Source: a virus. From it: a stretch of 64,000 nt of DNA. Positions 30,403 to 31,804 of the stretch are shown piece by piece; within the stretch, counting starts at the first letter, position 1, and each line of letters starts with the position of its first letter. The notes under the pieces were generated by a model, which worked only from the letters and a program-made list of their open reading frames with translations, was not told the DNA's origin and did no database searches. Location of the stretch: positions 1 through 64,000 of the IMG/VR virus record IMGVR_UViG_3300046684_000205. The stretch is one strand, 5' to 3'. The position numbers were made by a program, and so were the translations under genes.

Positions 30403-30704
30403 TGGCGATCCGGAAAATTGGCATGCTCACCGAGGTCACGCCCGGCCAGTACATCTGCATCGAGCCGCTGATGCGCGACCACATCTGCAGCTCGCCGCTG
30501 AAGGTGCTTCGCCGCAGCGGTAAGCGGGTGTATTTCGAAAACCGGCATGGTGAAGAGAAGTTCTGCGCTGTCGGCAGCGTCGTTGCCCTGTGCGACACCC
30601 AGGAGGAGGCCGCGGAGCTCTTCGCCATCAGCCTGTCGCAGTTCGACCGGCTGCGCGAGGTGCGCAACGAGCACAAGGCGCAGTTCGCGGCCCTGCTCGC
30701 ATGA
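30402..30704 (+). CDS. Hypothetical protein
   Basis: TAATG-coupled; GGAGG RBS. Confidence 0.7.
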   Translation: MAIRKIGMLTEVTPGQYICIEPLMRDHICSSPLKVLRRSGKRVYFENRHGEEKFCAVGSVVALCDTQEEAAELFAISLSQFDRLREVRNEHKAQFAALLA

Positions 30705-31804
30705 GCACGGCCTACTACAACGAGTTCGATCCCGGCGCCGCGGCGTGGCTCCGGGAGTTGATTAAAGAGAAGCTGATCGCGCCGGGCGTGGTCGACGAAA
30801 GGAGCATCGCAGATGTCACACCCGGAGACCTTGCCGGATTCACCCAGTGCCACTTCTTCGCCGGCATCGGCGGCTGGTCCTACGCTCTCCGACTTGCAGG
30901 CGTCCCTGACAGCCGTCCAGTCTGGACTGGAAGCGCTCCTTGCCAGCCTTTCTCCTCGGCAGGCGAGGGAGCGGGGTTTGATGATGAGCGGCACCTATGG
31001 CCCGCTCTCCACCACCATGCCCGCGTCCGACGCCCTGCAGAAATCCTTGGAGAGCAGGTTGCAAGCAGTCTCGTCGACCCATGGATCGACCTTGTACAAG
31101 CTGATCTGGAAGCCCTGGGCTACGCCGTCGGGGCGCTCGCGTTCCCGGCTTCGTGCGTCGGTGCCCCGCACATCCGCGACCGCTGCTACTGGGCAGGCCG
31201 GCTGGGTGACACCGACCTCCCGCGACTGGAAGGACTCGGGAGCCGATATCAAGCCGCGCTCGGACAATGGCAAGGAGCGCCTGGATCAGCTGCCGCGGCA
31301 AGCGAACTTGTGCGGCTGGTCCACGCCGATCGCCAACGAGGCCAAGGCGGGCACGCCCTGCTCCAACCAGGTGACGGTGGGCATGGCGGCGCAGCTGACG
31401 GGCTGGCCGACGCCGCGCGCGGTGGATGGCAGCAAGGGTGTGGACCCGACGGCGGACACGCTGCGCGGCACGGATCTGCCGACCACGGCCAGCTGGACGA
31501 GTGGGATCGCCGTGCCGGGCCCGGCCCGACTAACGGCTACTGGGAAGCTGCTGACTGGCTTGCTTGCCGAGACAGCCGATGGCGGCCTGTTGAATGCGGC
31601 ACACAGCCGCTGGCTCATGGGCTACCACGAAGCTTGGGATCGTGCGGTGCCAGGGTGGCAGGACTGGCACGCATGGCAGGTCTTGATGCAGCAAGCCTTG
31701 GCCGAGCAAAGAGCTACCGCGTGACGGCGCTGCGAGGCTATGGCAATGCGATCAACGTCTATGCCGCGAAAGCATTTATTGAAGCGTTCTACGGGAGCAT
31801 CTGA
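30701..31804 (+). CDS. DNA cytosine-C5 methyltransferase, alpha chain
   Basis: FFAGIGG, GSAPCQPFS, EQV, PHIRDRCY and C-terminal LRGYGNAI; motif IX is not visible in this frame. Confidence 0.9.
   Translation: MSTAYYNEFDPGAAAWLRELIKEKLIAPGVVDERSIADVTPGDLAGFTQCHFFAGIGGWSYALRLAGVPDSRPVWTGSAPCQPFSSAGEGAGFDDERHLWPALHHHARVRRPAEILGEQVASSLVDPWIDLVQADLEALGYAVGALAFPASCVGAPHIRDRCYWAGRLGDTDLPRLEGLGSRYQAALGQWQGAPGSAAAASELVRLVHADRQRGQGGHALLQPGDGGHGGAADGLADAARGGWQQGCGPDGGHAARHGSADHGQLDEWDRRAGPGPTNGYWEAADWLACRDSRWRPVECGTQPLAHGLPRSLGSCGARVAGLARMAGLDAASLGRAKSYRVTALRGYGNAINVYAAKAFIEAFYGSI
30813..31724 (+). CDS. Putative methyltransferase beta chain, nested in the +1 frame
   Basis: Own AAGGAG (30799-30804); three GWxTP repeats; motif-IX-like [12 protein letters not shown]. 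Confidence 0.75.
   Translation: [303 protein letters not shown]

Follow-up and report, generated by a model that had tools for sequence, protein, structure and literature searches.

In single-chain DNA cytosine-C5 methyltransferases such as M.HhaI, the polypeptide runs through a large domain (motifs I–VIII), a small domain (the variable region and motif IX), and back into the large domain (motif X). Multispecific methyltransferases of Bacillus phages (the SPR, phi3T and rho11s types) are orphan enzymes with tandem short units, each shown to recognize its own target. Natural two-polypeptide C5 methyltransferases have also been described. In M.EcoHK31I (Escherichia coli HK31, YGGCCR; Lee, Kam and Shaw, 1995), the alpha chain carries motifs I–VIII, the recognition domain and motif X, and the beta chain, which carries motif IX, is encoded wholly inside alpha in another frame (PMC2836561, PMC3404938). 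Both chains are needed for methylation (PMC2836561), and N-terminal deletions of beta weaken the association (PMC2836561, PMC3404938). M.AquI (CYCGRG) is a second natural two-subunit enzyme (PMC3404938). Here we describe a pair of nested open reading frames (ORFs), termed alpha (outer) and beta (inner), in a virus genome, IMG/VR record IMGVR_UViG_3300046684_000205 (93.5 kb, rated complete), of which positions 1 to 64,000 were analyzed and are referred to as the window. This locus most probably encodes an obligate two-chain orphan phage C5 methyltransferase, in which alpha provides the large domain and beta the small domain (Table 1).

A preliminary description, made from the sequence alone, had proposed a two-chain enzyme resembling M.EcoHK31I, encoded by a main gene and a nested +1 ORF with its own Shine-Dalgarno (SD) sequence, three repeats, and a motif-IX-like stretch. 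All of these elements are present where they had been placed, and the proposal is supported by selection on both frames, by the SD sequence within alpha codons, and by a predicted complex of the two chains. The beta ATG lies 112 nt into alpha, and the overlap of 912 nt makes up 83% of the outer gene. Motif IX (SRWLMG) is found on beta in the +1 frame and motif X (GNAI) on alpha, so that motif IX does not lie on the chain with motifs I–VIII.

The locus shares with M.EcoHK31I a beta frame nested in another frame and the division of motifs I–VIII and X to alpha and IX to beta, and the role of the M.EcoHK31I beta N-terminus in association fits the N-terminal interface predicted here. The two differ in that the recognition domain of M.EcoHK31I is placed in its alpha chain, whereas here beta holds the recognition-like units and the corresponding part of alpha is unselected; furthermore, M.EcoHK31I is a member of a restriction-modification pair, whereas the phage gene is an orphan. 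Compared by description, M.EcoHK31I is the closest known enzyme, and it may itself belong to this phage family. M.AquI likewise has two subunits, but it is split end to end in the variable region rather than nested, with motifs I–VIII on alpha and the rest of the variable region plus motifs IX–X on beta. The Bacillus phage enzymes, also compared by description, are similarly phage-borne orphan C5 methyltransferases with tandem units in the variable region, although each is a single polypeptide in a single frame, in contrast to the two ORFs in two frames described here.

In tblastn searches, the two proteins were located at matching positions in phage genomes of Klebsiella, Escherichia, Salmonella, Rhodobacter, Burkholderia, Xanthomonas, Pseudomonas, and others, at 40–50% identity. 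Thirteen bacterial and 80 viral loci (83 distinct) were fetched for comparison; these span prophages and phages of Alpha-, Beta- and Gammaproteobacteria, and in all of them the beta frame is +1 relative to alpha. Stops in the nested frame of close homologues, which the preliminary description had named as evidence that would tell against it, are rare: both frames are intact in 80 of the 83 distinct loci. The remaining three are L012, a metagenome-assembled genome in which alpha is frameshifted near its N-terminus; L058, a deletion derivative; and L093, where a stop interrupts the unconserved beta leader and is followed by a restart. Together with the low rate at which the nested frame stays open in codon shuffles (below), this degree of conservation shows that it is not a chance ORF. 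Independent rhizosphere assemblies contain the identical window sequence with no indels, and the two-frame layout is therefore not an assembly frameshift; no RNA run was present among the listed public runs with this sequence.

In the deletion derivative (L058:1395-2200), the alpha frame continues from motifs I–VIII directly into the motif IX sequence, which normally belongs to the beta frame, beta ends after the first unit, and the alpha C-terminus lies in a third frame. This is probably a defective copy, yet it represents a natural in-frame fusion of the alpha N-terminus to motif IX. In seven loci one ORF runs 500–730 nt beyond the stop of the other (beta in L003, L031, L069, and L088; alpha in L019, L034, and L077); no Pfam domain was found in the six extensions tested (all but that of L088), and chance read-through of GC-rich DNA probably accounts for them.

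The layout extends to a Paenibacillus phage: the nested gene of phage Shelly, labeled "g55 internal gene", is homologous to beta (hhalign probability 97.7%), and the same two-frame arrangement is annotated in GenBank for Shelly gp55/gp56 and for Xanthomonas phage PhiXhv-5. Copies on phage-plasmids and megaplasmids, recovered in a plasmid search, are each annotated as one cytosine methyltransferase. Two genes for cytosine methyltransferases are listed in a genome paper on Paenibacillus phages, which does not comment on their layout (PMC6070908); neither a methyltransferase nor a methylase is mentioned in PMC11860570; and our literature searches found no paper describing the two-frame layout of this phage family. 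The layout is known from one enzyme, M.EcoHK31I, and is kept by selection in about 80 related phage loci, yet it is seldom annotated. A single-chain relative was identified in Mycobacterium phage Graduation, in which gp47 (L097:1309-2136) carries the motif IX sequence EWLMGLPRGW shortly ahead of the motif X sequence GNGVVPQQ, both in frame with motifs I–VIII. This gene still holds a +1 ORF of 104 aa (L097:1565-1879) with a LLPTPLARDSKG motif; given its weak likeness to beta (hhalign probability 18.6%), it was not counted as a beta homologue.

The window has a guanine-plus-cytosine (GC) content of 63–66% (66% in the methyltransferase gene itself), and long chance ORFs are common on both of its strands. 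Examples are the minus-strand ORFs at 29679-30674 (331 aa) and 30245-30994 (249 aa), which overlap known plus-strand genes and are taken as likely GC-driven chance products; ORF length alone is therefore no evidence here. When synonymous codons of the window gene alone were shuffled, the +1 frame remained open in 3% of cases, such that the single sequence is only suggestive. Across loci, shuffles that kept the alpha protein and its codon usage left the +1 frame open in 0–5% per locus, and in genes of 47–56% GC it was open in 0 of 500 alpha-synonymous shuffles. In the reverse direction, with the beta protein kept, the alpha frame was open in no more than 0.2% (range 0–0.2%).

Each frame is under its own selection, as is evident from codon-position information computed over 78 loci and from substitution counts against close relatives. 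The pattern changes along the gene, from stretches in which only one reading is constrained to two in which both are (Table 1). In the first doubly constrained stretch, alpha third-position information is 0.75–1.46 bits (1.1–1.46 in seven of eight blocks), compared with 0.3–0.6 bits upstream of it, motif I excepted. In the second, all three codon positions carry ∼1.5–1.8 bits in the core blocks (alpha aa 281–300) and 0.9–1.6 bits in the flanking blocks. Between them, selection specific to beta is seen at beta aa 130–172. Compared with one close relative (L017), differences at alpha codon positions 1/2/3 number 9/6/27 in aa 1–80 and 13/3/0 in aa 166–210; compared with another (L018), they number 10/1/1 in aa 166–210. 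The ribosome-binding site of beta is selected as well: in 52 of 78 loci an SD-like core lies 3–13 nt 5′ of where beta starts (background, 11.6% of positions in these genes), and AGG is the Arg codon of the alpha D-x-R-S-I sequence in 34 of 79 loci, while accounting for 6.6% of Arg codons overall. This excess and this codon enrichment indicate selection for a ribosome-binding site within the alpha coding sequence.

Prediction of the alpha-beta complex, which had been suggested as a check of the two-chain proposal, gave interface scores (ipSAE) of 0.91, 0.92, and 0.91, against 0.00 for the best control. Among 80 solved complexes, 58 attain the mark applied to this score, as do 2 of 110 mismatched pairs; these counts hold only roughly here since the prediction used its own alignments (A1 and A2). 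The runs share at least 81% of contacts, with a partner predicted local distance difference test (pLDDT) of at least 69. The predicted interface joins alpha 100–160, 273–308, and 338–366 with beta 40–139 and 234–299, and it coincides with the two doubly constrained stretches, the second of which corresponds to alpha 273–308 with beta 234–282. The SRWLMG stretch of beta is modeled against alpha motif VIII (155–157, in contact with beta 268) and motif X (344–354, in contact with beta 265–270), a position in which, judging from solved single-chain enzymes in general, motif IX would be expected. The interface parts of each chain are predicted to be unfolded when that chain is modeled alone. As a model, the complex supports binding of alpha to beta.

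The alpha chain is recognizable as a C5 methyltransferase. Pfam PF00145 matches it only at aa 76–172 (E 6e-11; score 42.7, cut-off 22), phrog_363, named DNA methyltransferase, matches its full length (E 5e-74), and the alpha profile aligns with M.HhaI residues 71–174 (E 7e-16), covering PCQPFS, GEQV (motif VI), and HIRDR; the PCQ of alpha aligns with that of M.HhaI. Motif X follows motif VIII after ∼175 residues. Modeled alone, alpha is predicted to fold at aa 1–170 and 350–367 (pLDDT ∼85–96), with aa 173–316 below 50, and its model matches M.HaeIII and M.HhaI with a Foldseek probability of 1.00. The preliminary description had given alpha motifs I–VIII, a featureless stretch, and motif X. The motifs are present; the stretch is not uniform. 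Conservation of the linker is at by-product level or absent, but aa 271–307, with the consensus GPTNG.WRDADWL.CRDGKWRPVEPGTFPLAHG, are among the most conserved segments of the family and are written on the same nucleotides as the motif IX region of beta.

The family phrog_1008, named DNA methyltransferase, matches beta (E 6e-32), and more than 4800 beta homologues occur in a large protein collection, none of them with a Pfam domain. Comparisons with Pfam, NCBIfam, and PDB sequences gave no match, even as a profile, and an ESM Atlas search with beta returned only unnamed viral clusters. Beta alone is predicted to fold poorly (pLDDT 54). Its best-conserved parts are GSTLYKLTWK, the LRAS..RTS stretch, a WxTP unit, and the PARLTASG... 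region leading into motif IX. Twelve beta relatives longer than 531 aa were found; none has PF00145, and an in-frame fusion to a C5 catalytic domain was thus not seen among them. Rare long relatives (P0131, P0134) carry an HNH endonuclease domain (PF01844) or an N6/N4 methyltransferase domain (PF01555).

In the mechanism we propose, alpha would supply the catalytic, S-adenosylmethionine (AdoMet)-binding large domain, with motifs I–VIII and, after a long linker, motif X. Beta, read in the +1 frame of the same DNA, would start from its own SD sequence and ATG and would supply the small domain, comprising an N-terminal part that docks on alpha, the variable run of WxTP units, and motif IX. By analogy with single-chain enzymes, beta may correspond to the whole small domain and not just to a piece bearing motif IX, in contrast to the description of M.EcoHK31I. 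The alpha linker, an out-of-frame reading of the beta units, would stand in for the small domain and would be held stop-free to keep motif X joined to the catalytic domain, while nucleotides 30941–31180 and 31511–31630 would encode the contact surfaces between the chains. Both chains would be needed for activity, and the set of units would determine specificity. Given the orphan position of the gene among DNA-metabolism genes, the role of the enzyme may be to shield phage DNA against restriction by the host.

Several observations weigh against this interpretation or against parts of it. One third of the loci have no recognizable beta SD sequence, and the leader at beta aa 1–43 shows no selection. 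In L093, translation past the stop in the beta leader would restart where aa 57 of the window beta lies, and one gene caller began the window beta at residue 57. The true beta start could therefore be ATG 30979/30982 rather than 30813. Part of the complex score may come from similarity to solved single-chain methyltransferases, as can happen with the halves of a split gene. Finally, the family is known at the level of genes and predictions.

Alpha keeps every catalytic motif, and its strongly conserved aa 271–307 look faintly motif-IX-like by eye. Along with the highly variable unit repertoire of beta, these features would suit an arrangement in which both chains are made but alpha is active alone, with beta an accessory that modulates or switches specificity or serves another role. 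We consider this improbable, given that alpha has no selected sequence where the recognition domain should be and its aa 173–316 are predicted not to fold alone, while beta carries the motif IX of single-chain relatives and packs it against motifs VIII and X in the model; the alpha chain of M.EcoHK31I, moreover, is inactive alone (PMC2836561).

Very improbable, in our estimation, is a single chain made via two programmed frameshifts, from the alpha N-terminus by +1 into the beta units and motif IX and by −1 back to motif X. Such a scheme leaves unexplained the extra conservation of beta aa 44–122 and alpha aa 271–307, the conserved beta ATG with its selected SD sequence, and the openness of alpha across the whole linker, even though the three joined pieces would give the canonical order (I–VIII, variable region, IX, X) and motifs IX and X share a frame with I–VIII in Graduation gp47. 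No slippery site was seen by eye at the would-be junctions, where no systematic search was made.

That the nested ORF is a by-product, either of a GC-rich stop-free second frame (the window is full of long chance ORFs, and 3% of shuffles of its gene stay open) or of compensating indels in a pseudogene or assembly error, is scarcely credible and is contradicted by the comparative data, since the ORF is kept in 47–56% GC genes where no shuffle was open, shows beta-specific selection and more than 4800 homologues, is identical and free of indels in independent samples, and recurs in loci that, at 40–50% identity, are not copies of one recent sequence.

Under the preferred interpretation, an obligate two-chain enzyme, the variable part of beta is where specificity would be expected to reside. 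The three units of the window read GWxTP, and a fourth WxTP (WATPSGRS) occurs in the N-terminal part, at beta aa 102. The preliminary description had claimed that modules are gained and lost while both frames stay open and had suggested comparing repeat number across homologues. That comparison, counted after beta aa 115, gave zero to four WxTP units per locus. With units typed by their first 12 residues, there are ∼28 recurring types and 23 singletons, in ∼58 different orders among 80 loci. In a close relative from a rhizosphere run (X4), nucleotides 31330–31393 of unit 2 (64 nt) are replaced by 73 other letters, a net gain of 9 nt that keeps both frames; both this swap and the range of unit numbers and orders bear the claim out. 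The units are therefore real, modular, and exchanged, and the constraint of keeping both frames open is equally real. The contig of the X4 relative has a depth of 219, and the substitutions listed for it shift from alpha third to alpha first positions at ∼nt 31125. Recent duplication as the origin of the three window units was ruled out, as the copies are only 70–75% alike at the DNA level.

The units most likely contact the DNA target. Multispecificity, raised as a possibility in the preliminary description, would require each unit to recognize a separate target. A broader proposal is that the WxTP units are exchangeable specificity cassettes, with one target or half-target each, and that M.EcoHK31I belongs to this family, its recognition domain having been wrongly placed in alpha; as a whole, this proposal is tentative and rather doubtful. 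If true, phages could re-aim or widen their methylation by swapping 30–40-aa units in the inner frame, since the outer frame would tolerate any stop-free insert, and the doubly coded stretches would be a rare example in which the same DNA specifies two peptide segments that fold together.

With 912 nt shared, the overlap is a long one that has been conserved in phages very distant from one another, and selection can be measured separately for each frame. Because annotation pipelines usually call only one ORF of the pair, the phage genes annotated as "cytosine methyltransferases" would in thousands of cases represent half an enzyme, and specificity predictions made from alpha alone would look in the wrong frame. 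Modular units in the inner frame offer a possible route by which phages change methylation specificity against host restriction, and the phage family would give M.EcoHK31I, a long-standing oddity, a structural and evolutionary context.

Table 1. Positions of the two ORFs, their parts, the stretches under differing selection, and the neighboring genes in the window.
Feature	Position	Strand	Remarks
Alpha ORF	30701..31804	+	367 aa; C5 methyltransferase large domain (I–VIII), long linker, motif X
Beta ORF	30813..31724	+	303 aa, +1 frame, wholly inside alpha; putative small domain
Beta parts			Predicted docking part at the N-terminus, then the WxTP units, then motif IX
SD sequence for beta, AAAGGAG	30798..30804	+	Inside alpha codons D-E-R-S-I; 8 nt before ATG 30813
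Alpha motif I, FFAGIGG	30854..30874	+	AdoMet binding; aa 52–58; F53, A54, G55 invariant
Alpha motif IV, PCQPFS	30938..30955	+	Catalytic cysteine C81; P80, C81, Q82, P83, F84, S85 all invariant (59 sequences)
Alpha motif VIII, GAPHIRDRCY	31160..31189	+	G154, P156, R159, R161 invariant; aligned to M.HhaI motif VIII
Alpha linker, aa 171–270	31211..31510	+	Out-of-frame reading of beta units; own selection only for stop-freedom
Alpha insert, aa 308–339	31622..31717	+	Clade-specific; between PLAHG and motif X; overlaps beta C-terminal tail
Alpha motif X, RVTALRGYGNAIN	31718..31756	+	Contains LRGYGNAI; L344, G348, N349 invariant
Beta WxTP unit 1	31200..31313	+	Commonest unit type, in 40/80 loci; only beta selected here
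Beta WxTP unit 2	31314..31400	+	Variable unit
Beta WxTP unit 3	31401..31520	+	In ∼40% of relatives; occupancy 0.36–0.53 in family alignment
Beta motif IX-like stretch	31587..31640	+	Contains SRWLMG; W275 invariant; most of the stretch (L260, P262, H264–G270, P272) ≥90% conserved
Alpha aa 1–80	30701-30940		Third positions free; only alpha selected; beta aa 1–43 an unselected leader
Alpha aa 81–160 (first doubly constrained stretch)	30941..31180	+	All three positions conserved; both frames selected; alpha motifs IV–VIII over beta aa 44–122 (includes LRAS)
Alpha aa 166–210	∼31196-31330		Alpha first (= beta third) positions vary most; only beta selected
Alpha aa 211–270	31331-31510		Variable in both frames; no conserved reading
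Alpha aa 271–310 (second doubly constrained stretch)	31511..31630	+	All three positions conserved; both frames selected; alpha core 271–307 over beta aa 234–273 (PARLTA... to motif IX)
Alpha aa 340–367	31718-31801		Third positions free; only alpha selected
RdgC-like recombination-associated protein	29443-30402		phrog_724; upstream neighbor
SNF2-type helicase	32931-34394		phrog_62; downstream neighbor

The clade-specific alpha insert has an occupancy of 0.08–0.18 in the family alignment, corresponding to ∼8–18% of relatives. With an RdgC-like protein and an SNF2-type helicase as neighbors, the methyltransferase sits in a phage DNA-metabolism block. No nuclease family was matched among the neighbors in a search for a cognate restriction endonuclease, a survey that is incomplete in that some small neighboring ORFs have no match of any kind; the methyltransferase is most likely an orphan enzyme, with no recognizable nuclease beside its gene. 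Just 3′ of the gene, an ORF of 111 aa (31984-32319), which has no PHROG match, contains an HAE...C..C pattern that reads like the zinc site of a cytidine/dCMP deaminase.

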